Source: Octopus sinensis (taxonomy: Eukaryota). From it: DNA of 64,000 nucleotides. Made by a program: the position numbers and the translations under genes. How positions within the stretch are numbered: position 1 is the stretch's first letter; every line of letters begins with the position of its first letter. The notes under the pieces are model-generated. The model made no database searches and was not told the DNA's origin. It was given only the letters and a program-made list of their open reading frames with translations. Positions 3,472 to 59,312 of this stretch are shown here, piece by piece. The DNA is taken from positions 13,330,001 through 13,394,000 of the forward strand of contig NC_043008.1 of NCBI RefSeq assembly GCF_006345805.1. Reading direction: 5' to 3'.

Positions 3472-3701
3472 TATTTCTTTACTACCCACAAGGGGCTAAA
3501 CACACAGAGGACAAACAAGGACAGACAAACGGATGAAGTCGACTACATCGACCCCAGTGCGAAACTGGTACTTAATTTATCGACCCCGAAAGGATGAAAG
3601 GCAAAGTCGACCTCGGCGGAATTTGAACTCAGAACGTAGCGGCAGGCGAAATACGGCTACGCATTTCGCCCGGCGTGCTAACGTTTCTGCCAGCTCGCCG
3701 C
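3472..3701 (-). mobile_element. tRNA-derived SINE family B, full length
   Basis: Head gcggcgagctggcagaaacgttagcacgccggg with B box gagttcaaattcc, core ctttcatcctttcggggtcgataaattaagtacc, tail gggtagtaaagaaata. Same family as 31657, 50297, 51732 and 54196. Confidence 0.92.
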
Positions 3702-10094: not shown

Positions 10095-10380
10095 AATATA
10101 TGTATACATGTAGTTCAAATTTACAGAAAACAAAAGACTAAGACAGGAGAAGGAACTACAGGCAGGTGTGTTAGTTTAACACTCAGGAAGAATGGAAAAG
10201 TGTTGGACGTTTCGAGCCTATGCTCTTCGAGGGAAAGGTTTAAGAAGGAAAAAAACGAAGAGGGAAGTATACGAAAGGGAGAGAGAAAATGTGTACGGAT
10301 TAACGGTTGGACATGACGAAAGATCCAGAAGAAAGAAGCTGAATGAAAGGGAAATAATAACAGTGACCCGGTCGAACTAG
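10095..10380 (-). mobile_element. Family F repeat carrying a hammerhead relic, copy 1
   Basis: Homologous to 34826-35015 and 40560-40805 (tttacagaaaacaaaagac..agacagg...gtattagtttaac.ctc.ggaag...acgtttcgagccta.gctcttc). The minus strand at 10202-10237 reads CUUU CCCUCGA A GAGC auag GCUC GAAA CGUC. Confidence 0.75.
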
Positions 10381-10425: not shown

Positions 10426-10844
10426 ACTCTTTTACTCTTTTTACTCTTTTACTTGTTTCAGTCATTTGACTGCGGCCATGCTGGAGCACCGCATTTAGTC
10501 GAGCAAATCGACCCCGGGACTTATTCTTTGTAAGCCCAGTACTTATTCTATCGGTCTCTTTTGCCGAACCGCTAAGTGACGGGGACGTAAACACACCAGC
10601 ATCGGTTGTCAAGCAATGCTAGGGGGGACAAACACAGACACACAAACACACACACACATACATATATATATACATATATACGACAGGCTTCTTTCAGTTT
10701 CCGTCTACCAAATCCACTCACAAGGCATTGGTTGGCCCGGGGCTATAGCAGAAGACACTTGCCCAAGATGCCACGCAGTGGGACTGAACCCGGAACCATG
10801 TGGTTGGTTTGCAAGCTACTTACCACACAGCCACTGCTTGCGCC
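10426..10844 (-). mobile_element. tRNA-derived SINE family A, full length
   Basis: Head ggcgcaagcagtggctgtgtggtaag (A box), ggttcagtccc (B box), cttgggcaagtg central motif, internal (TA/TG)n, (agtaaaag)n tail. Confidence 0.93.
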
Positions 10845-11222
10845 TATATATATGAATGGAATAAATGGATGTGAATGTATGTGAGTGCGAGCTAAATATT
10901 ATGTGGGCTTATGTGTGTGTAAGTGAATAATTTGTGGAGTGATGGGCGTTTCTTGTATTGCAGAATGTGCCACAGATATAACAAAAGGAAACAAAGTAGA
11001 TATTTTGGTTCCCATGATTGATGAAAATTTGTTAAAAGAAATTGTTTAGCCTTTACGTTTGAAGTCTATGCGGTCATCTGACAAGTCCGGCTTCTTTCAA
11101 ATTGATGTAATGTTTCAGCGGTATTTTTTTTCTGTGACAATACGTAGCTAAATAAAAGAGGTGAAACTCTATAATAAATAGAAACATATTATTCAGTAAC
11201 AGTACTCTAGATTAAAGCTTAT

Positions 11223-11689: not shown

Positions 11690-11840
11690 GTCGGGATTGC
11701 TTTAAAATCTATAATATTATAAATATATCTTTTCAATTCTTAAAGTACTAGATGACAACTATTTAAAAGAAATTTTTGCGATAATGTGGCTTACATTCAC
11801 AAAGATGGTACGTTTCAAATTTGGGTATCTCTTCCTTTTT

Positions 11841-12055
11841 TTCTCTTTTTAATTGTTTCAGTCATTTTCTGTGGCCATGCTGGAGCACCGCCTTTAGTTG
11901 AGCAAATCGACACCAGGACTTATTCTTTGTAAGCCTAGTACTTATTCTATCGGTATCTTTTGCCGAACCGCTTCGTTACGGGGACGTAAACACACTAGCA
12001 TTGGTTGTCAAGCGATGTTGGGAGTGACAAACAGACACACAAACATATACACAAA

Positions 12056-12107
<52 letters not shown>

Positions 12108-12109
12108 AC

Positions 12110-12192
<83 letters not shown>

Positions 12193-12355
12193 CAAAGGGC
12201 GTCTTTCAGTTTCCGTCTACCAAATCCACTCACAAGGCTTTGGTCGGCCCGAGGCTATAGTAGAAGACAGTTGCCCAAGGTGCCACGCAGAGGGACTGAA
12301 CCCGAAACCATGTGGCTGGTAATCAAGCTACTTACCTCACAGCCATACCTACGCA
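11841..12355 (-). mobile_element. tRNA-derived SINE family A with an expanded internal (TA)n
   Basis: Same head, body and tail as 10426-10844. Internal (TA)n of ~130 bp at 12058-12190. Confidence 0.92.
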
Positions 12356-12788
12356 TATATTTAGAAGAGATTATAAACTGTTTCCCATTTTCTTAATGGA
12401 CGTAAGCATAGTGACTTCCATCATCAGAGAATTATCAGTTGAGATATAAGAAGTGTGCATCTAGTCCATAAATTACAATGCGGTTTCTAACATTGTCTTA
12501 GCTGGTTCTAATTTCAGTGTAGTTTGCTATAGAATATCTGACCAACTTCCCTGTTTTATAAAATGATTGATGAGTTTCTCTGGAAGGCGATGAGAAAATG
12601 TGAAACCTGAAATGTACGAGATAACCACCTACTTATTTACTATCCGGTGCGAAAATTATTCGTATGGTCGGATATTACGACCATACGATATATAAGGCTG
12701 TATAGCTTCACTTGCATACTCATTCTATTCACAAATATATGCGTGCCTATTTTTTGTAACTCAAGGAGTGGCAGACTATGAGTCACCT

Positions 12789-12863
<75 letters not shown>

Positions 12864-13317
12864 CGAAGAATGGGGGTTTAGTTCACAGGAGATCTAAAAT
12901 ATTAGATTCACTAGGTAAGACCTGTAACGGATTAGTACGGCTCATAATACATACAAGCATACATACATACATACACACATATATACATACAAATATTCAT
13001 GTACATAAATACACAAATAGACATATGGAGTGATGGATACATAGACAGACAGATAGACAGATAAAGAGAGAGATGACGTACATGCCCGTGTGTGAGCACG
13101 TATGAGTATGCATATATATGAATATACACACATATACGTATATATATATATATATGCATTTATATACATATATGTTTATACATATACATATATATACACA
13201 CAGATATATATGTATGTATATATAAATATACATATGTGTGTGTGTGTATGCATACATATATGTATCTCTCGCTCTCTCTTTATATATATACATATATATA
13301 AATATATATATATATAC

Positions 13318-13714
13318 GCGCAGGAGTGGCTGTGTGGTAAGTAGCTTGCTAACCAACCACATGGTTCCGGGTTCAGTCCCACTGCGTGGCATCTTGGGCA
13401 AGTGTCTTCTACTATAGCCTCGGGCTGATCAATGCCTTGTGAGTGGATTTGGTAGACGGAAACTGAAAGAAGCCTGTCGTATATATGTATATATATATAT
13501 ATATGTGTGTGTATGTTTGAGTGTCTGTGTGTGTCCCCCTAGCATTGCTTGACAACCGATGCTGGTGTGTTTACGTCCCCGTCACCTAGCGGTTCGGCAA
13601 AAAGAGACCGATAGAATAAGTACTGGGCTTACAAAGAATAAATCCCGGGGTCGATTTGCTCGACTAAAGGCAGTGCTCCAGCATGGCCGCAGTCAAATGA
13701 CTGAAACAAGTAAA
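13318..13714 (+). mobile_element. tRNA-derived SINE family A, full length
   Basis: gcgcaggagtggctgtgtggtaagtagcttgc...ggttccgggttcagtcccactgcg...gcatggccgcagtcaaatgactgaaacaagtaaa. Confidence 0.93.
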
Positions 13715-20669: not shown

Positions 20670-21483
20670 TAGTAGGCCGTTATGAAATAACAAGTACTAC
20701 GTTTTAGTTTTGTCAGCTGCGGGCCATAGGAAAAATTAGCAAATTGGGTCAATGTGTTCTAAACAAATTTTCCGAATCCTGTGGCGCACAAAGAGCGAAT
20801 GTGCGCTCTTCTTTGTTGTCACGTCTCACGTATGGACTTTTTTTTAGACCGAATAGTCACTGGTAACTAGAAACGGGTTCTCTATAAAAATGTCAAGCGC
20901 CGAAGATAGTGGGTAAGGAAAGGAGTATTACCGGCACCCCAGGCTAAAGAAGGACTTCATCCATGTAAGGTGTTGTTATATGTTTGGTGGGATATGAAAT
21001 GTACAGTCCACTTTGAACTTTTAAACCCAAACCAAACGATAACAAATGTGATCTACTTGACCGGCCTAAGTCAGCCGACTAGAAAAAGACGATCATCTTT
21101 GCTTTCTATCAGGATAATGCTCGGCCACATACAGCGAGGATGACATTCCAAAGGCTGGAGCAGTTTGAACGGGAAACGATGTTCCATCTACCATATTGGT
21201 CATTGCCCCATATGATTATCATTTGTTCTGCAGTCTTCAAATTCATTTGGACGGAAAAAATAACAATTCTATAAACGAAGTCAGAACAGTACTACAGGAG
21301 TATTTTTCTTCACGGACAATTGAATTTTGGAGCAAGAGCATTGCAAGTCTATCAGATATATGGAAGAGCCTCGTAGAAAATGAAAGTGTGTATATCTTAG
21401 ATTAGAAATGGAATTTGTTTATCATAATTTAGAAAAGTAAAAGAAGTTTAAGAAAGCCGCATTATGTATGGGATGGCCTAATA
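20670..21483 (+). mobile_element. Mariner (DD34D) transposon relic, internally deleted
   Basis: Disrupted transposase motifs FLDRIVTGN, LYKNVKRRR, GLHPCKVLLYVWWD, HFELLNPNQTI, QDNARPHTA and IAPYDYHLFCSLQIHLDGK. The right end gcattatgtatgggatggcctaata looks like a TIR plus TA. Confidence 0.9.
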
Positions 21484-23295: not shown

Positions 23296-23949
23296 GTTAT
23301 ACATGCATGTGTTTATACATGTGTGTGTGTGTCTATTTATCTGTCTGTCTGTGTTGAGAACTGGGGTTGATGTAATCGACTCATCCCGTAATTGCTGGCC
23401 TCATACCAAAATTCGAAATCACTATACATGCACGTAAATACGTACGTATGTGTGTTTGTATAGATAACTATTCAGACATTAAAAAATTCATAGCAATATA
23501 AATTGAACATGATATGATATAATATATTCAGTGAATGTATTTATAGCACAAATATTTTACATATTGTATTTTTTTGATTAATTTCCCAGACATTATCAGT
23601 TTCAATATTTTTCTGAATATATATTTAATTAATTTAAGATATATTTAATTACTTTAAGATATTCTCGCTATAGACTTTCAAATAATATTTTACTACACAT
23701 TTACTGGCTCTGTGTTCATTACGGAATCTATTTAATTAATAACTTATATATGGTAAAATTTGTTTCTTTGAATTATAGAATGTTTGCGTAAAGATAAAAG
23801 ATGGTACAGATTTGGTGTGATAGTTTAACACTGAAGATTTTGATGAATCCAAGAAGGACATAGTTGAAGCCAAGGAGAAACAGATTGATCGCCTGACCAT
23901 TGGAACAAGAATTTAAATAAGAGACACTCCAACCTGGTCAAGCAGTAAT

Positions 23950-24940
23950 AGGGACTAGGCATGACGGTCAGGTGATTAGTGATAACAGAAACGATGTAGA
24001 CATTTGCCCGACCTTTCTGAGACAGTTTCCTCTCGACCCATTTCTGTGTAAGTTTGACGCTCTGTTTGCCACCTCGTCCCAGTTCTTATCCTGGAGGTTG
24101 GGACCGAACCAGACCCCGACCAGTACAGCTGGTCTGTCGGTCCAGCGTTCGACGACGCCATACTATGGCATCGCCCTGCCTCTCCAAGAGACCAACCGCA
24201 AACCCACCGATATGTTGGCGTTGATTTTAGCCCTTGCAACCGATTCAGATTCCTTGAGAATGGTACTAACCGTCTCCACTTCGGAGGCTTCCCTTCTGTG
24301 TCCGACTTTGAAAGGGATGTTCCTTATCTGTACCAACTTCCTCAGCAGTAGCTCGAGTGCCAACACGTACAGACGAGGCGACGGCGAGCAACCCTGACAG
24401 ACCAAGGGTGCGATGACAAACGGTTCCTCAGATCACTGAACAGATGTTGCTGTTCATTGCAGCGATCCAAGCTCTGAAAATGGGTCTGCATTTTTAAAAC
24501 TAATTGCGCTCAAGAGAGGATCAAATAGGTCCTGCATTCAGGTCGGCTTCTAAGTATCGATGGTCGACCCTATCGAATGCTTTCTTTTGATCCAAATTGA
24601 TCAGAGGACTGTCGAAGCCAGCTTTGGTCCCAGACCTCTCTATAATGTAACGCAGAAAGTAGAGGTTGTCGTGGATAGACCTGATCGGGATTGCACACGT
24701 TTGCGCTTCTCCGACCAGTCTATCGACGGCTAGTGACAACCTTTTCTAGAACATCTTGGCTAAAATCTTAAAATCTGCGTTTGACAGAGTTATGGAATGA
24801 AAATTCCCTAGTAGGTCCCTATTTTCGGCGTCCTTTCTCAGCAGTGTCGCCACAAATCGGCTAACAGGACTAGAAATTCTCCCCTTCTATTTCCAGTTTC
24901 GGTAGACGACTACCAATAGGTCATCGAGCAAATCTGGCAA
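23950..24940 (-). mobile_element. Tx1/L1-clade LINE reverse-transcriptase fragment, frameshifted
   Basis: Minus-strand peptides ATLLRKD...SITLSNADFKILAKM, QTCAIPIRSIHDNLYFLRYIIE, LINLDQKKAFDRVDHRYL and QGCSPSPRLYVLALELLLRKL correspond to RT motifs 1-4, followed by AKINANISVGLRLVSWRGR. Confidence 0.92.
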
Positions 24941-25315: not shown

Positions 25316-25320
<5 letters not shown>

Positions 25321-25692
25321 TGCTTTCTAATTGAGGTATCAATACCGGCAGATGACAACGTGTCTCTAAAAGAAATGGAGAAACTCTCAAAATACAAAGA
25401 CCTGGAAATAGAGGTAACTAGAATGTGGAACCTGAAAACAGAAACAATTCCTATCATAGTAGGTGCATTAGGCATGATAAAAAAATATTCAGACAAATAC
25501 ATAACAAAAACACCAGGACTTACAACACATATAACATACAGAAAATTGCACTACTAGGCACTGCACACATCCTACGCAGAACACTTTCCATACAATAACC
25601 ATCAGAGTATCACAACAAATCACAGCACATACCCAAGGCACACAGAGCTGCGCTCGGTAGTGAAGTGAAAGCACGCTATAAAAATAAAACTA

Positions 25693-31656: not shown

Positions 31657-31884
31657 GGCGGCGAGCTGGTGGAATCGTTAGTACGCAGGGCTAATGCTTA
31701 GCGGCATTTCGTCTGCTGTTACGTTCTGAGTTCAAATTCCGCCGAGTTCGATTTACGATTCATCCTTTCGGGGTCGATAAATTAAGTACCAGTTACGCAC
31801 TGGGGTCAATGTAATCGACTTATACTTTTGTTTGTCCTTGTTTGTCCCCTCTATGTTTAGCCCCTTGTGGGCAATAAAGAAATA
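31657..31884 (+). mobile_element. tRNA-derived SINE family B, full length
   Basis: ggcggcgagctggtggaatcgttag...gagttcaaattccgccgag...gggcaataaagaaata. The flanks share agaataacc and acctagg, possibly a TSD. Confidence 0.92.
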
Positions 31885-33677: not shown

Positions 33678-33740
<63 letters not shown>

Positions 33741-33744
33741 TACA

Positions 33745-33915
33745 GGCGCAGGAATGGCTGTGTGGTAAGTAGCTTGCTAACCAACCACATGATTCCGGGT
33801 TCAGTCCCACTGCGTGGCATCTTGGGCAAGTGTCTTCTGCTATAGCCCCGGGCCGACCAATGCCTTGTGAGTGGATTTGGTAGACGGAAACTGAAAGAAG
33901 CCTGCGCCTGTATAT

Positions 33916-33985
<70 letters not shown>

Positions 33986-34200
33986 TATATATATATGTGT
34001 GTGTATGTGTGTGTGTGTTTGTGTGCCTGTTTGTCCCCCTAGCATTGCTTGACAACCGATGCTGGTGTGTTTAACTGCCCGTCAGCTAGCGGTTCGGCAA
34101 AAGAGACCGATAGAATAAGTACTGGGCTTACAAAGAATAAGTTCCGGTGCCGAAGCATGGCCGCAGTCAAATGACTGAAACAAGTAAAGGAGTAAAAGAG
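33745..34200 (+). mobile_element. tRNA-derived SINE family A with a small internal deletion
   Basis: Full head and tail present. Lacks the ggggtcgatttgctcgactaaagg segment near 34145. Confidence 0.92.
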
Positions 34201-34637
34201 AGAGTATGCGTCCATATATGTCAAAAGGTTACTAGGATCCAACTATACAAAATGTAGGAATTATGCAGCTAGCACGGAAGACTGTGTATATAATAAAATA
34301 TATATTTATTAGTATCTTCCCTGCAAATATACATACATGTAATTATATATATGTCCGTGTATGTCTGCCTGTGTGTGTTTATGCATGTGCGTTTGTGTGT
34401 GCGCATGCGTACTTTGAAAGGGGGACGAGATAGATAGATATGGATGTTGGTCGGTACTTCCATGAAAGTACAGGTTTTTTAATATCCTGTAGAAAAAGGT
34501 GAGTTCTGAACATTATTCTCCTGCTTATATTCTTCTAACTACTTTTACTCTTTATTCTTCTATTCTGGTCTTTTAATGCTGTATTTTACTCCTTTTAAAC
34601 TGTGAATCTTATTCCTCGTAAGCTGTAAATTTTCTCC

Positions 34638-34825: not shown

Positions 34826-35015
34826 GGGAGAGTTTACGAAAAGAAACCAACAAAAGACGAAGTCAGATGGTGTACAAAACAAATATGTATTAGTATAACG
34901 CTCAGGAAGAGAGAAAGTCTTTTACGTTTTAGGCCCACGCTCTTCTACAGAAAAGGACACAGAAAACAAGGAGAGAAACAAGGAGAGAAAAAATGTGTGT
35001 AGTGGCTAGCGATCT
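34826..35015 (-). mobile_element. Family F repeat carrying a hammerhead relic, copy 2
   Basis: Homologous to 10095-10380. The minus strand at 34919-34955 reads CUUUU CUGUAGA A GAGC gugg GCCU AAAA CGUA AAAG. Confidence 0.75.
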
Positions 35016-38947: not shown

Positions 38948-38979
<32 letters not shown>

Positions 38980-38981
<2 letters not shown>

Positions 38982-39367
38982 AATTAAGGACTGAACACGA
39001 AAAGTGGACAGTCAACATGCTAGATATAGACGTCAAATCGCCATTCACCACAAAAGATTATGTTCTCAGATCAAACTCAACACAAAACCATAGCAATAAA
39101 CAAGTGAAAAATATACGAATTAAAATAATTATTTTATTTTATTTCGTATATTTTTCACTTGTTTATTGCTATGGTTTTGTGTTGAGTTTGATCTGAGAAC
39201 ATAATCTTTTGTGGTGAATGGCGATTTGACGTCTATATCTAGCATGTTGACTGTCCACGTTTCGTGTTCAGTCCTTAATTGGTATATATAAATATTTCAA
39301 TCTTCGGATTCTTTTTTAATATGCTAGACCACTGGTCTTAATTGATAAATATCAATTTCTACCCTTA

Positions 39368-39510: not shown

Positions 39511-39591
39511 TGCGTGTGTGTGTGTGCGTGTGTGTTTGCGTGTTTATATGTACATATAAGTGTACGTACACCGCTATTAATATATATTTAA

Positions 39592-39848
39592 TATAAAATG
39601 GGACAAGAACGCAAAACATCCAGACAGTTAGGTGATATAAAAAGGGACAACAAAACATCCAGATAGAACATACAAAGAAAACAAGGACGTGGGTCATTTG
39701 GAGTTTTCTTTCCTCAGTCGAGTTCCAGATTATCTTTGCAATTTGGGCTGGTTATACTCGGGTTTGCTCCAATCCGTCCAGCTCCAAGGAGAAACTAAGA
39801 GCATTAGATTCCTTGGAAGGAAGCAGCAAATGTATACAGAAACAAGGA

Positions 39849-39850
<2 letters not shown>
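39592..39850. mobile_element. Microsatellite-embedded interspersed repeat (family E), copy 2
   Basis: Homologous to 455-760 and followed by (TA)n. Confidence 0.7.
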
Positions 39851-39890
<40 letters not shown>

Positions 39891-40181
39891 TGCAAAGATA
39901 CCGAAAAGTGAGAATGAATGCATTGGTGGATAAATATTCTTCGTTTCTGTGTTAACAGAGCGGTAGATGCTTTTATGTCAAGACATTTTTACAATTGTTG
40001 GAGTTTACTGTTTGGAAGTGGGACTTCTAATTCCGTGTAGCCATTTTAAGCGCCTTTGAACCCTAGCACGGTTTTTATAGATTCTTGCAAACTTAATTTG
40101 CATACCAAATTAGATCCCAAATGAACTATTTCTAAATCGAATATCGTTGAGCTTTGTGGAATGTGTTTTTCTATATGTATG

Positions 40182-40245
<64 letters not shown>

Positions 40246-40249
40246 ATAT

Positions 40250-40548
40250 AGAGGGCATTATTACACATACATGCCACACGCTAAGAGGGACATTAGTCAT
40301 TTCTACCAAAAAATGTTACTAATCACACCCAATGCAATTTTTCAAAGCAAGACATTTAAAAAATGAATTTAGTCTTGTATCACCTGTGATTTCGTACTTA
40401 CCGCAGTTGCGACCGTACTCATCAGCAAGACTGATTCTGAACATATCATAAATAAACGACCCCGTACCGTCAAAGCCGAACAACTATCTGCTCCACTCCA
40501 ACGAAGCACATGGGGAAGTTTACACATAATACATCCGGTAAATGGCAG
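40250..40548 (-). mobile_element. ~300-bp non-coding hammerhead-bearing element in (TA)n (retrozyme or solo Penelope pLTR candidate)
   Basis: Unique sequence bounded by (TA)n on both sides, containing a complete hammerhead and no meaningful ORF. Confidence 0.7.
40364..40437 (-). ncRNA. Type I hammerhead ribozyme, canonical core
   Basis: Minus strand reads gaauc AGUCUUG CUGAUGA GUAC[ggucgcaacugcgguaa]GUAC GAAA UCAC[ag]GUGA UA CAAGACU aaauuc. All core nucleotides are present. Stem I 7 bp plus an extension, stem II 4 bp, stem III 5 bp. Predicted AUA cleavage between 40378 and 40377. Confidence 0.92.
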
Positions 40549-40559
40549 ATATATATATA

Positions 40560-40805
40560 TGGTTGAAATTTACAGAAAACAAAGACAGGTGTAAAAACAA
40601 CAAGCAAATGTATTAGTTTAACACTCGGGAACGTGAGACTTTTACGTTTCGAATCTACGCATTTCAAGAGAAAGGAACACGAGGAGATAAACAGATAGAG
40701 TATGAAAGACATCTTTTGGAGCTAATGGTCCATCATGACGGCTGGCTGGACAAAGGTAGTTAAACAGGCCAAACAAAGAAGAAGGGAGAAAATAAACCGA
40801 AGGTG
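40560..40805 (-). mobile_element. Family F repeat carrying a hammerhead relic, copy 3
   Basis: Homologous to 10095-10380. The minus strand at 40639-40674 reads CUUU CUCUUGA A AUGC guag AUUC GAAA CGUA AAAG. Confidence 0.75.
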
Positions 40806-44600: not shown

Positions 44601-44959
44601 TGAAAAGTTTATATCTCAGTCAAATTGAAATCTTAGAATGTGTGGAAATTTAAACAAATATTTTCAGATTCTACAAAGTAATCGCAGTAAATGAAGCCCA
44701 AAACCTGAGGCATAGTCCTGTGGGTTTGGGCCCTAACGTTATTACTATTATCTGAAATTGGGCACAACTTGTATCAGCTAGAAACCTCATCATGGTGAAT
44801 GATAAGTACATTATGTCAAAGGAATCCATGCATCATTGTCAAGAATTAAATCCTCATTTTCGACACTAGAAATGATAACGGAAGGAAAAACAAAAAAATG
44901 AAGATCGCATTCACATTGCCATTCCGTATGATAGGAATTTATACAATAAGGTAACCATA

Positions 44960-45377
44960 GGCGTAGGATTAGCTGTGTGGTAATTAGCTTGCTTACCAAC
45001 CACATGGTTCCGGGTTCAGTCCCACTGCGTGGCACCTTGGGCAAGTGTCTTCTACTATAGCCTCGGGCCGACCAAAGCCTTGTGAGTGGATTTGGTAGAC
45101 GGAAACTGAGAGAAGCCCGTCGTATATATGTAGGTATATATGTATGTGTGTATATGTATGTGTGTATATGTTTGTGTGTCTGTGTTTGTACCCCCAACAT
45201 CGCTTGACAACGGATGCTGGTGTGTTTACGTCCCCGTAACTTAGCGGTTAGGCAAAAGAGGCCGATAGAATAAGTACTAGGCTTACAAAGAATAAGCCCT
45301 GGGTTCGATTTGCTCGACTAAAGGCGGTACTCCAGCATGGCCACAGTCAAATGACTGAAACAAGTAAAAGAGTAAAG
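44960..45377 (+). mobile_element. tRNA-derived SINE family A, full length
   Basis: ggcgtaggattagctgtgtggtaa...ggttcagtcccactgcgtggcaccttgggcaagtg...gactgaaacaagtaaaagagtaaaga. Confidence 0.93.
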
Positions 45378-49335: not shown

Positions 49336-50296
49336 CATATATATATATATGTGTATGTATTGTATATATAGTGAGAAGAATCGATATTATTTAAGAAAAA
49401 GTTTCTATAATTTCAAGATTTTATCTTATTAATATTAATCTTTCAAATTTTGCTGCGCTGAAATCTAAATTAGGATTTTCGTAGCCTAATGATATCAATT
49501 CCTTCTGGGATCTAATGAATATTCCAAAATTTATTCGGCTTCATTCACGGATTAGAATTATATAACCTGCGCAGATATTGCACCAATTTTTCAAGTTACC
49601 TTAATAGTTTAATTCTTTCATATTTACTTATATGAGTTGCGAGTGCATTGGTACAAAGAGTGCAACACAAATTTCTGTTTATACTCACGCTACTCTTAGG
49701 TTTCAATGAAATATATTTATTAACTATACTTAAATAATCATTATATTGTCAACAACGCTTGTTTTCCGGGAAATGGAAAACATTTTCGATGCGTCATTTG
49801 AATAAGAATATCAAGATATTTTTCTCTGCAAATAATTGTTCCAATCAAAGTCACATTTCTATATAGAATGGAGAAATCTTTCGTCACAATTCCCCCCAAA
49901 ATTTGAATTTCTGAAAATGAATTATCAACTGATCGCTTAGATGCTACACATATTTTTTTCCTCAATCAAATATCACCATATATTACGCACGAACCTTGTG
50001 TATTTGACCTCAAATAAAATTTATTTAGTTACTATGAAATCTGTGCCCAAAATACAAAACCGATGTATTAAAAAATATTCAAATCGCAGTTTATATATGT
50101 ATTAAGAAAGCATCGCGCAGTGAAACGTTGTCAGTGTCTCTTTTACCACATACAACGGTACCAACTTGTACCACTTTTCCACATCGATGACCAACTACAC
50201 CGGCACAGCTACCACCATCATCATCATCCTTAGCATCAACAACAACAATAGCGGCATTATATTTATCACTCTCTTTATCAACAACTTTATATTATC

Positions 50297-51284
50297 TATT
50301 TCTTTACTACACAGAAGGAGCTAAACACAGAGAAGACAAACAAGGACAGGCAAACGGATGAAGTCGATTATGTCGACCCCAGTGCGTAACTAGTACTTAT
50401 TTAATCGACCCCGAAAGGATGAAAGGTAAAGTCGATCTCGGCGGAATTTGAACTCAGAACATAGCGGCAGACGACATACCTATTTCTTTACTACCCAGAA
50501 GGGGCTAAACACAGAGAGGACAAACAAGGACAGACGAACGGATCAAGTCGATTACATCGACCCTAGTGCGTAACTGGTACTTATTTAATCGACCCCGATT
50601 AAAAGCAAAGGATGAAAAGCAAAGTCGACCTCGGCGGAATTTGAACTCAGAACGTAGCTGCAGACGAAATACCTATTTCTTTACTACCCACAAGGGGTTA
50701 AACACAGAGGGAACAAACAAGGACAAACAAACGGATCAAGTCGATTATATCGACCCTAGTGCATAACTGGTACTTATTTAATCGACCCCGAAAGGATGAA
50801 AAGCAAAGTCGACCTCGGCGGAATTTGAACTCAGAACGTAGCTGCAGACGAAATACCTATTTCTTTACTACCCACAAGGGGTTAAACACAGAGGGAACAA
50901 ACAAGGACAAACAAACGGATCAAGTCGATTATATCGACCCTAGTGCATAACTGGTACTTATTTAATCGACCCCGAAAGGATGAAAAGCAAAGTCGACCTC
51001 GGCGGAATTTGAACTCAGAACGTAGTTGCAGACGAAATACCTACTTCTTTACTACCCACAAGGGGTTAAACACAGAGGGAACAAACAAGGACAGACAAAC
51101 GGATCAAGTCGATTATATCGACCCTAGTGCATAACTGGTACTTATTTAATCGACCCCGAAAGGATGAAAAGCAAAGTCGACCTCGGCGGAATTTGAACTC
51201 AGAACGTAGCTGCAGACGAAATACCGCTAAGCATTTCACCTGGCGTGCTAACGTTTCTGTCATTATCGTCAGCTCATTATCGCC
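50297..51284 (-). mobile_element. SINE family B pentamer: one head plus five tandem 184-bp bodies
   Basis: Unit starts at 50297, 50481, 50674, 50858 and 51042 (periods 184, 193, 184, 184). Single head at ~51226-51284. Confidence 0.95.
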
Positions 51285-51731: not shown

Positions 51732-52145
51732 GGCGGCGAGCTGGCAGAAACGTTTGCACGCCAGGCAATATGCTTAGCGATATTTCGTCTGTCGCTACGT
51801 TCCTAGTTCAAATTCCGCCGAGGTCGACTTTGCCTTTCATCCTCTCGGGGTCGATTAAATAATTACCAGTTATGCACTGGGCTCGATATAATCGACTTAA
51901 TACGTTCGTCTGTCCTTGTTCGTCCCCTCTGTGTTTAGCCCATTGTGGGTGGTAAAGAAATAGGTATTTCGTCTGCCCCTACGTTCTGAGTTCAAATTCC
52001 ACCGAGGTCGACTTTGTCTTTCATCCTTTCGGGGTCGATAAATTAAGTACCAGTTACGCACTTTTGTTTATGTAATCAACTTAATCCATGTGTCTGTCCT
52101 TGTTTGTCCTCTCTATGATTAGCCCCTTATGGGCAGTAAAGAAAT
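51732..52145 (+). mobile_element. SINE family B dimer: one head plus two bodies
   Basis: Head ggcggcgagctggcagaaacg, with the junction aaagaaataggtatttcgtctg at ~51955-51975. Confidence 0.93.
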
Positions 52146-54195: not shown

Positions 54196-54559
54196 TATTT
54201 TCTACTCTAGGCACAAGACCCGAAATTATGGGGAAGGGGGCCAGTCGATTAGATCGACCTCGAAATTATGAAAGGCAAATTTGACATCAGTGGAATTTTA
54301 ACTCAGAATGTAAAGACATACGAAATACCTATTTCTTTACTACCTACAAGGAGCTAAACACAGAGAGGACAAACAAGGACAGACAAACGGATTAGGTCGA
54401 TTATATCGACCCCAAATGCGTAACTGGTACTGATTTAATCGATCCCAAAAGGATGAAGGGCAAAGTCGACCTCGCCGGAATTTGAACCCAAAACGTAGAC
54501 AGACGAAATACCGCTAAGCATTTTTCCCGGCGTGCTAACGTTTCTGCCAGCTCGCCGCC
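54196..54559 (-). mobile_element. SINE family B heterodimer (second unit has a different tail)
   Basis: Head at 54559 and junction cgaaatacctatttcttt at ~54321-54338. The second unit ends ...aatttcgggtcttgtgcctagagtagaaaataa. Confidence 0.9.
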
Positions 54560-56995
54560 TTAGAAGAGACGAAATATTGCAATTAGGCGACGAACATTGG
54601 AATGGGTACTTTAATGTATATTGTAAAGTAATCTTTGTCTTAAAATTCGTTGTCATTAGATGAATGATGGTCGTTTGAAGTAATGTGAACATATTAAAGA
54701 ATTTAGATTATCTAGGACATTGGTCTCTAACTTGTGCGATTGCATGTACAATGAGGTGAAATATAAGGGAAAATATAAAGCGGAATAAAGTGAAGTTGAG
54801 CGTAATTGAAATTGTACATATGGTGTGTATCGCAGTAGGTAGAACGTGCGGAGGTGTGCATGGCTGCGTGCACGCGTGTATGTGTGTGTGTGTAAGTGTG
54901 TTGCTACCAGGAAATAATAGTGATGATATATGTAGTCTACGCTAGCATGAGCAGTGGATGGCTTCCTCTCATGCATGTGCATTAGATTTCAATTACTTTT
55001 AATGAGTTTTGGTTATAAAAAAAAACATATTCTGTTTTGCCTCTTGAGTGGAAGACAATTATTTCGTAGATTTTTAAAAATCTCTGCAATGTGTACTCCC
55101 CTCCATTGTAAAATTCAGTTGGAGTGAGTATATTGCAATTCAGAATGTACCATGTGTTATTGGATTCGATGCTTAAGATGTGTTTTTTTGGAGAGGCATT
55201 TACATGGAGTTATGGCACAAATAAATTGTGCGATAGTTTTCTCTAGTTCGTGCTGAATTGATAGTGTAGATTTTATTACGTTATATAATGGCGTCGGCTA
55301 TTATGAGTCGCATGAAGAGAGTTTAGTAATTTTCTATTTGTCTTAGGTGGGTGTGTGAGATTTCTAAATTTTCCAAAACAATGTATTGGCTACCAGTAAA
55401 AGTTCTAGAATCTTTTAAGCAATGGATCGTAGATAGGTTGAGATGAGAAATATTTCTTACGATGGAAATGTGTGTGTGTGTCTATGTGTTACTTTTGCAA
55501 ATTATAGACTTTATAATATAGTACACCTGCAAATATTTGCTTTTCCATTCTTATAATTCATTATTCAATATGGAGAATTGCTGTAACCTACGATTACGAG
55601 ATCATTATCCCGTTACAGGCCCACCAAAAGGAAAAAAAAATTGCCTCATTTCAGGCTGGAGAGTAAAAAAGTTAATACTGTGTTGGTCACCAATGAGGAA
55701 CCGCTTTCAGTGTATTGATATCGAACGGAATGCAAAAAGATTGCTTTTGGTCATATGGTGCTGTTATAAGTAATGATTGAATTCGCGGCTGGTATTTCTA
55801 TGTCAATTCTCACTTCGCTGATTTCTGAGTGATGGATTGGAAGCCGTCGTAAGATTTCATCACAAATAGTTTCCTAATTAAGACTTGATAGTATATTTTG
55901 ATACGTTTATCAAATTATACGAGCTAGGGTTTCTCTGTGTCAAAAAGCGATTTACTGTAAGTGGATATTGATAAGCTAGCTACTTATATCAAAATTAGTG
56001 AAAATGGGAATACTTTCGATTTATGTATACTTAGACTAAAACAATCCTGCATACACCTACAATCCGAAGTTTAAGATAAATTGCAGCTAACAAATAAAAG
56101 GAGGCAGTTTGATTGAATATAAATAGTTTGAATATAATAGTCTGAATCCAAGAGTAAGCGACCTTCTGCAATAGAGTTCGCATGATAAACATAGCATTAT
56201 GGAACCTACTTATGATCATTCTTTACGACAAATACTGATTGATAATTTGTATTAATTATATTACAGCTTAATTTCATTATAAATTTAAAGCACATTCACA
56301 AGGCAGTAATATAATTCTTGAGCAAAATATATATTTAAAGAACAACATAATGAAAAATTAATGACACTCTAATAACGAATGCAAAGGAGCTTATAGAAGC
56401 CAATTAAATTTTATAGCTGTCTTTCAATCGCAGATCTCCTTTTTAATAACATTATTTAGTGAGAGAGTACTTTTATGGACATCAGGTGGGAGATATTATT
56501 TTACATATAATTGTAGTTAATAGAGTCGTGTAATTATTCAAAATGCGTGTGAATTCAATGTCAGAGAGGACAGAAAGGGTGGTTCTGCAGAACAAAATAT
56601 TTAGTACATATACAATTTCTCACAGATGTATTATTTGAGAAATTAATATTTCAGTAGGTTCATAGATATTTAGGTACACAATATCGAAAACAAATGATGT
56701 GAAGCGTGTAAATCTAAGATTGATGAGTTGGTCACGCGTAATATAGAACAAATCATGCGTTCAACTAAAAGGTATTCCCTTCTGAATCCAAGAGTGAGAT
56801 TCGGTTACAAATACTTAATCATGATAGCAAACACAGCTGATGGAAATGCAACTAATGTTATTTCTCATATTACGAAACATTAAACACGAATATCCTGAGA
56901 AGCAGAAAGCTACTTTTTTTCCATCTGATGGCAAAGCAAAGTCAGATATGTTGAAAACGTCATTCGTGTCATTCGACCTGTAAAGCAATCATAGA

Positions 56996-58211: not shown

Positions 58212-59180
58212 CAAGGAAAACTAATGCAAAACACGATCAAAACAAAGTACTGTTTTCTGTATTTTAGGAACCTGAGAAATAAAAAAAGGACTTCATAGTA
58301 CCTAACAACTATGAAGAAAGAGAGGAAACAACAAAAACTGTAAAACAACTGAAATCCAATCTAAACTTGAAACAGGAACGTGTAATAACACGATGGCAAA
58401 AATAGCCCTTACATGGTAAGTATTAGGTTAAGCTAAACAGAAAAGAAATAAACAAAGCAAAATTCCATCAATGGCTGAGAAGCTCAGGACTCAAAGTAGG
58501 GACTGAAGGATTTAATTGCAGCACAAGTTCAAAGGCTTCCCACTAGGAATCACGAAAAACATATAATGGAAAGAAATATAAGTGACTGCAGAATATGTGG
58601 TGATGGAGAAGAAACAATAACTTTTCTGGCTGCCCAGTCCTGGTTTAGAAGGAATATATTCACAGACATGACAGAGTTGGGACCAATATACACTGAAATA
58701 TGTGCCAACACTATGGAATAACAACATAAAAAAAGATGGAATAGACATTCCAGATAACGTCATAGAAAATTATAGAGAAACAATACTCTGGGATATGCCA
58801 ATGCATACAGGTAGCGAAATTAAGGCTAATAAGCTGGATATAATTGTCAGAGATTCCAAGGAAAAATGCTTTCTAATCGATGTATCAATACCAACAGACA
58901 ACAAGGTTTCTGTAAAAGAAACGGAGAAACTTTCAAAATATAAAGATCTGGAAATAGAGGTAGCTCGAACGTGGATCCTAAAAACAGAAACAATTCCTAT
59001 CATAGTTGATGCATTAGGTATGATAAAAAATATTCAGACAAGACACCAGATATTACAAGTATAGAGAACTTACAATACAGTGAAAATAAGAGCACCACAA
59101 TAAATCACAGTACATACCCAAGAGATACAGAGCTGCGCTTGATAATACAGTGAAAGCACGTGATAAAAATAAGATTTCTT
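58209..59180 (+). mobile_element. R4/Dong-clade (RLE) LINE 3' portion, degenerate
   Basis: LHGKY...HQWLRSSGLK..TEG..IAAQ.Q.LPTRN, a CCHC knuckle (CRICGDGEETI...SGCPVL), YIHRHDRV, and ILWDMP...ANKLDIIV...CFLIDVSIP...KETEKLSKYKDLEIEV. Same family as 25316-25696. Confidence 0.93.
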
Positions 59181-59312
59181 AATAATAGTGATGATGATAA
59201 CACACGGAGCTCTGGCAGGTGATGCAGCAGAAATTTGCCTCAATTTACTAAATATTGAACAGTTATACAATAATTATAATAATAATGATAATAATATTAA
59301 TAATAATAATTC

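Follow-up and report, generated by a model that had tools for sequence, protein, structure and literature searches.

The described systems closest to the locus analysed here are the retrozymes and the Penelope elements (PLEs) of animals. According to the excerpts of Cervera and de la Pena 2020 (PMC7229834), hammerhead ribozymes of the retrozyme type have all three helices in full and lack an additional base between A9 and G10.1, and the retrozymes of the mussel Mytilus galloprovincialis are units of 350-390 bp. Animal retrozymes as a whole are given in the partial sources as 150-450 bp (up to ~1 kb), with highly self-paired RNAs. The minimal hammerhead of metazoan PLEs, in the portion of Cervera and de la Pena 2014 (PMC4209133) used here, has a short helix I, an unpaired base 5' of helix II and no helix III. 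For PLEs, the available part of Craig et al. 2021 (PMC8557442) reports 5' truncation and, for the Naiad and Hydra elements, a preference for (TA)n; it lists the octopus Naiads as (TA)n and describes Naiads as being without canonical hammerheads. Monomer derivatives of retrozymes are found in Li, Clavereau and Pollet 2026 (10.64898/2026.07.22.740005), where it is argued that retrozymes and PLE ends form a continuum. Hammerhead retroelements are already known from many animals, and the kind of element treated here is not new. From cephalopods, 235 Rfam hammerhead matches have been counted in the giant squid, and beyond this count no such cephalopod family was found described in the literature; the supplements of PMC7229834 and 10.64898/2026.07.22.740005 may list it.

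The window, i.e. the whole 64-kb stretch of DNA that was analysed, is AT-rich, animal-type DNA (GC 27-40% per 2 kb), dense in microsatellites and short dispersed repeats. At 40250-40548 it contains an island with a hammerhead on the minus strand, and the features of this island and its flanks are as follows.

40250..40548, minus strand: 5'-truncated copy of a hammerhead-bearing retroelement family, its RNA sense being the minus strand (contigs of four sequencing runs)
40189..40249: left TA run (40189-40238, 50 nt of perfect TA) and an AT-rich stretch to 40249
40549..40560: TA run of 12 nt on the right, directly at the point of truncation
40371..40432, minus strand: type I hammerhead ribozyme (descriptor scan, pair listing and fold)
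40432-40426 with 40377-40371, minus strand: helix I, 7 bp (pair listing)
40425-40419, minus strand: hammerhead core CUGAUGA (descriptor scan)
40393-40390, minus strand: hammerhead GAAA (descriptor scan)
40378, minus strand: cleavage triplet AUA, with the predicted cut after this position (descriptor scan)
40394..40418, minus strand: helix II, two stems of 4 bp parted by a 2x3 internal loop with A as its last base and capped by a 4-nt loop (fold)
40379..40390, minus strand: palindromic helix III, with 5-bp arms around AG (fold energies and a variant in runs X7 and X2)
40439..40536, minus strand: rod of 41 pairs, rich in G·U, upstream of the ribozyme (minimum free energy, z and pair counts)
40327..40352, minus strand: segment downstream of the cut, predicted best partner of the missing 5' extension (duplex prediction)
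40254..40275, minus strand: 3'-terminal hairpin of the element, tandemly repeated in some members (fold and loose contig ends)

The ribozyme is real. An earlier note had placed a hammerhead midway in the island, and the type I descriptor indeed matched there, at 40432-40371 on the minus strand, and at no other place on either strand of the 64 kb; 100 shuffled sequences gave a mean of 0.15 loose matches and no strict match. The motif is complete, with the CUGANGA core, the GAAA, an NUH triplet and three helices, of which helix I is open. Among the Rfam hammerhead families RAGATH-1-hammerhead gives a weak match (40373-40449, minus strand, 16.5 bits, E 5.2) that lies far under the gathering score of 56.3, and an Rfam scan of the whole window returned no family at threshold.

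Variants of the family bear on the three helices in different ways. One contig of run X2 has both sides changed at three helix II pairs (40394/40418, 40395/40417 and 40401/40412), keeps two further pairs as wobbles and has an insertion in the outer stem, which suggests, on this single contig, that helix II may be kept by compensatory changes. At helix I, among the best 40 of 65 variant rows, one variant retains a wobble and one breaks a pair whose partner is unchanged. Helix III is weak as a hairpin (+0.4 kcal/mol) and strong as a self-duplex between two molecules (-11.2 kcal/mol) and thus would suit cleavage as a dimer, of the kind described in the accessible part of PMC4209133. Loose contig ends of X7 and X2 reveal a subfamily whose helices I and II differ in sequence and whose helix III is palindromic around a centre of 1 nt. 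The active secondary structure of the isolated motif is predicted to lie 2.1 kcal/mol above the minimum and to make up ~1% of the ensemble, falling to <0.3% in longer RNA and 0.06% in the whole island, in a model that covers neither tertiary contacts nor dimers. U1.7 and the last A of the helix II loop are present in the window copy and in a variant; here U1.7 can pair with A, whereas the contact between loop 1 and loop 2, in which U1.7 meets the last A of loop 2, is described in the excerpted text of PMC11875169 for an unpaired U1.7.

In form the ribozyme is of the type that PMC7229834 links to retrozymes, with full helices I-III and without the extra base between A9 and G10.1, unlike the minimal ribozymes of PLEs: helix I has 7 bp, helix III has 4-5 bp and no base is inserted. 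This does not by itself exclude a PLE, since some PLEs carry less minimal hammerheads, as far as the partial sources go. Two traits differ from metazoan retrozymes, namely a helix II lengthened by a further stem beyond an internal loop, and the 5-bp palindrome of helix III.

TA repeats flank the island on both sides, as the earlier note had it, although unevenly, with 50 nt of TA plus AT-rich sequence on the left versus 12 nt on the right. The last ~10 nt of the left AT-rich stretch may belong to the tail of the element; contigs of X2 and X9 are identical to the window from 40240 onward. On the right, one X9 contig matches up to 40548 and then departs. The window has 112 TA runs of at least 10 nt, and 0.8% of its 300-bp segments have both ends in, or at most 12 nt from, such a run. 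A target-site duplication is unreadable inside TA.

The island was also said to be free of open reading frames, and no credible one was found: stop-free frames through it reach 59 aa at most, none matched Pfam (148 of the 181 frames of the window were scanned), and for two open frames no longer protein homologue was found, which is weak evidence. Among the same 148 of 181 frames there was no Penelope reverse transcriptase (RT), GIY-YIG frame or other PLE protein remnant. The 64-kb window holds no second copy of the island. The segments 39888-40170, 40561-40800, 39584-39851 and 38980-39128 were considered as decayed tandem copies and rejected, the best similarities being reached by 9 of 200 and 11 of 200 shuffles in eight comparisons.

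Outside the window the family is widespread. Part of the island occurs in 20 of 24 listed sequencing runs, from nine studies under three species labels (best share 0.54). Contigs of four runs were aligned to 40240-40580 at 80% likeness; all runs are contigs and none is on record as RNA, that status being guessed for X9. The runs contributed 791, 914, 55 and 29 aligned contigs, those of the two large runs (probably DNA) being mostly 90-99% alike; some contigs stem from the neighbouring repeat at 40552-40580, and the summed depth is not a copy number. Contig depth is higher at 40336-40371 and low over helix II, a measure that cannot rank the parts of the element. The island is covered end to end, in pieces, by contigs of four runs, and many different variants cover every bin of the aligned stretch. 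The notion of a dispersed copy of a multi-copy hammerhead family lying by TA microsatellites has therefore held up, and the single-copy alternative fails against the contigs of the two large runs. Judged from these contigs, this is a multi-copy family of hammerhead-bearing, apparently non-coding retroelements. Of two pattern scans of metagenome contigs, one gave no match and the other 7 matches of 21-38 nt, all by chance; scans of viral contigs and of bacterial and archaeal genomes gave none.

The two ends of the copies behave differently. On the left, among the listed 24 of 131 loose ends, 13 contigs of X1 and 2 of X9 turn AT-rich from ~40243-40245, and loose ends at 40260 (X1 and X7) and at 40276 (X7) repeat a ~23-nt unit of the terminal hairpin; none of those listed leads into a second unit. 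On the right, a contig of X2 continues from 40538 with 88 loose letters and a contig of X9 from 40548 with 22; these extensions, which rest on one contig per run in two runs, are related non-TA sequence with a 12-nt word in common. A contig of X7 with a depth of 398 has 23 unaligned letters past 40549. Since contigs continue past 40548 with sequence other than TA, the window copy is 5'-truncated at its right TA run, and the earlier description of the 299 bp as a monomer of ~300 nt fails, longer members running past 40548. In a further X9 contig the family sequence reaches from the 3' end only to 40283, where a TA-type microsatellite takes over, so that two truncation points are seen. The extension sequence is absent elsewhere in the window. 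The element would be at least 321 nt long, and ~377 nt if the whole X2 loose end belongs to the family, which fits the 350-390 bp of the mussel retrozymes. The contigs of the four runs, which are short and of which none spans the stretch, show no head-to-tail joint; this negative is weak, because the far end of the unit lies outside the aligned stretch and the loose ends come from the best 24 of 131 rows.

Strong self-pairing is a property of the ribozyme strand only. For the island as a whole z is -3.3 to -3.9, and the rod upstream of the ribozyme (-44.6 kcal/mol) has z -6.5 on the minus strand versus 0.05 on the plus strand. Its pairs comprise 15 A-U, 13 G-C and 13 G·U, with no A·C mismatch. 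Decay of an inverted repeat at the DNA level would yield both kinds of mismatch, and we infer from the lack of A·C that the rod may be under selection as RNA. The family variants do not yet confirm this: among the best 40 of 65 variant rows, 10 of 12 transitions keep pairing versus ~66% expected without selection (p ~0.17), and 3 of 3 transversions break it. An origin of the G·U pairs by RNA editing is not supported, because paired sites show C/U as well as A/G differences.

A long-range helix may join the missing 5' extension to 40327-40352. Two motifs of the extension both pair best with this segment in duplex predictions, and the segment overlaps a 6-nt repeat of the 5' strand of helix I that is predicted to be able to capture the 3' cleavage product. 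The helix is suggestive only, given that controls reach its energy in 3-16% of cases: shuffles of the island in 33 and 28 of 500, shuffles of the motifs in 81 and 36 of 500, and real pieces in 12 of 420, the antisense duplex being nearly as stable.

Taken as a whole, the element resembles metazoan retrozymes in its canonical-type type I hammerhead, its GC content below 50%, its non-coding RNA that is self-paired on the ribozyme strand, its many divergent copies and its plausible size; dispersed single copies are known for retrozymes as well. It differs from them in that the window copy is truncated, in that no tandem copies were seen in the window or among the contigs of the four runs, and in its TA targeting, which the parts of the retrozyme literature at hand do not describe. 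With the 3' ends of endonuclease-positive PLEs, as depicted in the excerpts of PMC4209133 and PMC8557442, it has in common a hammerhead near the 3' end, 5' truncation, insertion into (TA)n and a palindromic helix III. The two pseudo-LTR (pLTR) traits of PLEs, 5' truncation and insertion into (TA)n, are found in the window copy and in one X9 contig. Unlike those 3' ends, it has a non-minimal ribozyme, and no RT or GIY-YIG domain was seen in the window.

Our preferred reading, on which our own judgement is evenly balanced, is that the 299 nt of the island are the 3' part of a longer, highly folded, non-autonomous retrozyme-like RNA element that does not code for protein, bears a full type I hammerhead, has spread in many copies via RNA and is moved by a PLE. 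A PLE with a TA-preferring GIY-YIG endonuclease would cut a TA microsatellite, its reverse transcriptase would prime at the fixed AT-rich 3' end of the element, at ~40250, and reverse transcription of the window copy would have halted after 299 nt, with TA remaining on either side. The fixed AT-rich 3' end, the variable 5' ends and the TA flanks agree with target priming of this kind by a PLE that prefers TA. The hammerhead of an intact source copy would cleave its transcript after 40378, on its own or more efficiently as a helix III dimer, to give unit-length RNA, and two tandem ribozymes would release a circularisable monomer, as in retrozymes. With its single ribozyme the window copy cannot release a monomer; it is an offspring rather than a source. 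Tandem copies and circles are the defining features of retrozymes, and the element is classed here as one that works like a retrozyme or a PLE end rather than as a proven retrozyme. A more far-reaching version, which we consider unlikely, is that of a true retrozyme of ~380 nt or more, probably cephalopod, that rides a TA-targeting PLE and whose source arrays elsewhere in the genome release abundant viroid-like RNA circles; such a circle would stay folded through its G·U-rich rods and its long-range pairing, and would avoid perfect double strands in animals with very high A-to-I editing.

The same island might instead be the truncated 3' end, or solo pseudo-LTR, of an autonomous PLE, most likely Hydra- or Neptune-like, with its ORF further upstream, and we regard this as a serious, if somewhat improbable, explanation. 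PLEs typically show truncation at the 5' end, a fixed 3' end and flanking TA, and most of their hammerheads are, in the available text of PMC4209133, single dispersed motifs of truncated copies. According to the excerpts of PMC8557442, the hammerheads of Hydra PLEs are 'canonical' and these elements insert into (TA)n, and the palindromic helix III recurs in the PLEs of Drosophila, rotifers and shrimp in what the partial sources report. The lack of a head-to-tail joint in the contigs of four runs agrees with a PLE end as well, as a weak negative. Against this, the island motif does not bear the marks of a minimal hammerhead of metazoan PLEs, the 190 nt that lie upstream of it form a rod with no coding trace, and no PLE protein remnant was found among the 148 of 181 frames scanned. 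Furthermore, 10 short motifs of the family have no exact match in the Naiad, Chlamys and Hydra sequences of the PMC8557442 supplement, where line breaks and cut runs may hide one; an eleventh, of 8 letters, has 17 matches there, of which the two listed fall in unrelated sequence. Naiad_Obim was also considered as a relative and set aside, its 3' end having no resemblance to the island by eye. On balance, the full ribozyme, the non-coding rod and the likely size favour a non-coding retrozyme-like unit over a PLE end, while a PLE end stays in play through the truncation, the targeting of TA and the lack of joints.

Two other explanations carry less weight. The element could have been moved by a LINE outside the PLEs, e.g. 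a microsatellite-favouring R4/Dong or Tx1 element, as a SINE-like unit with a hairpin and a short repeated tail. The terminal hairpin is tandemly repeated in some copies, much like the 3' tails of SINEs and LINEs; Dong-R4 and L1-Tx1 LINEs were recently active in Octopus vulgaris, and a LINE-type RT remnant lies 16 kb from the island. Type I hammerheads near 3' ends are, however, tied to PLEs in the portions of the literature used here, and no similarity to LINE tails was seen. We find this origin improbable. That the 299 bp represent a complete retrozyme monomer is largely refuted and, in our view, very improbable. The size falls inside the range of animal retrozymes, both ends abut TA and the island folds strongly (z -3.3 to -3.9); against this, members pass 40548, and what follows there matches neither TA nor the left end of the island, no joint of 40548 to 40250 occurs among the contigs of the four runs, and the island folds less stably as a circle than as a line (-83.1 versus -89.7 kcal/mol).

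The family appears to be large, occurs under three species labels and escapes the Rfam thresholds. If arrays and circles were found, the TA insertion sites would point to a specific PLE partner, and such a link would bear on the question of which enzymes move animal retrozymes. If an ORF were found upstream, the element would be a PLE with an unusually complete ribozyme.

The surroundings of the island, from 38.9 to 40.9 kb, are a nest of short elements parted by TA runs. A second TA-flanked repeat family lies directly to the right of the island, with members at 40561-40680, 10113-10238 and 34850-34960 that are ~71% alike; on the minus strand, two of its copies have a degenerate motif similar to the PLE minimal hammerhead (short stem, GAAA-CGU), with a broken core. 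A third TA-flanked family is represented by 39584-39851 and 451-725 (77% alike). The palindrome at 38967-39295, with 162-nt arms that are 98% complementary and 5 nt apart, has TA runs nearby on both sides and resembles an inverted PLE end insertion.

Remnants of other mobile elements are scattered over the window. A broken LINE-type RT remnant occupies 23800-24890 on the minus strand (RVT_1 at 24524-24745, E 0.0003, below cut-off), and its relatives carry zf-RVT or AP endonuclease domains, by which it is of LINE type and was rejected as a PLE. The frame 25316-25557 follows an AAT run and has a second copy near 58862-59200; it resembles the C terminus of LINE proteins of the R2/R4 type. A Mariner-type Transposase_1 fragment is located at 20910-21140 on the plus strand (E 1.7e-12). 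A dispersed repeat of ~400 bp with an internal TA/CA microsatellite is found at 10440-10853, 13308-13714, 44957-45376, 11839-12363 and 33737-34202, its copies being 73-95% alike. Finally, a SINE-like unit of 184 bp, which has no Rfam match, forms five head-to-tail copies at 50296-51225, which appear to resemble octopus SINEs and on that ground point to a probable cephalopod host, and recurs in dispersed form at 51781-52145, 3472-3701, 31657-31884 and 54253-54561.
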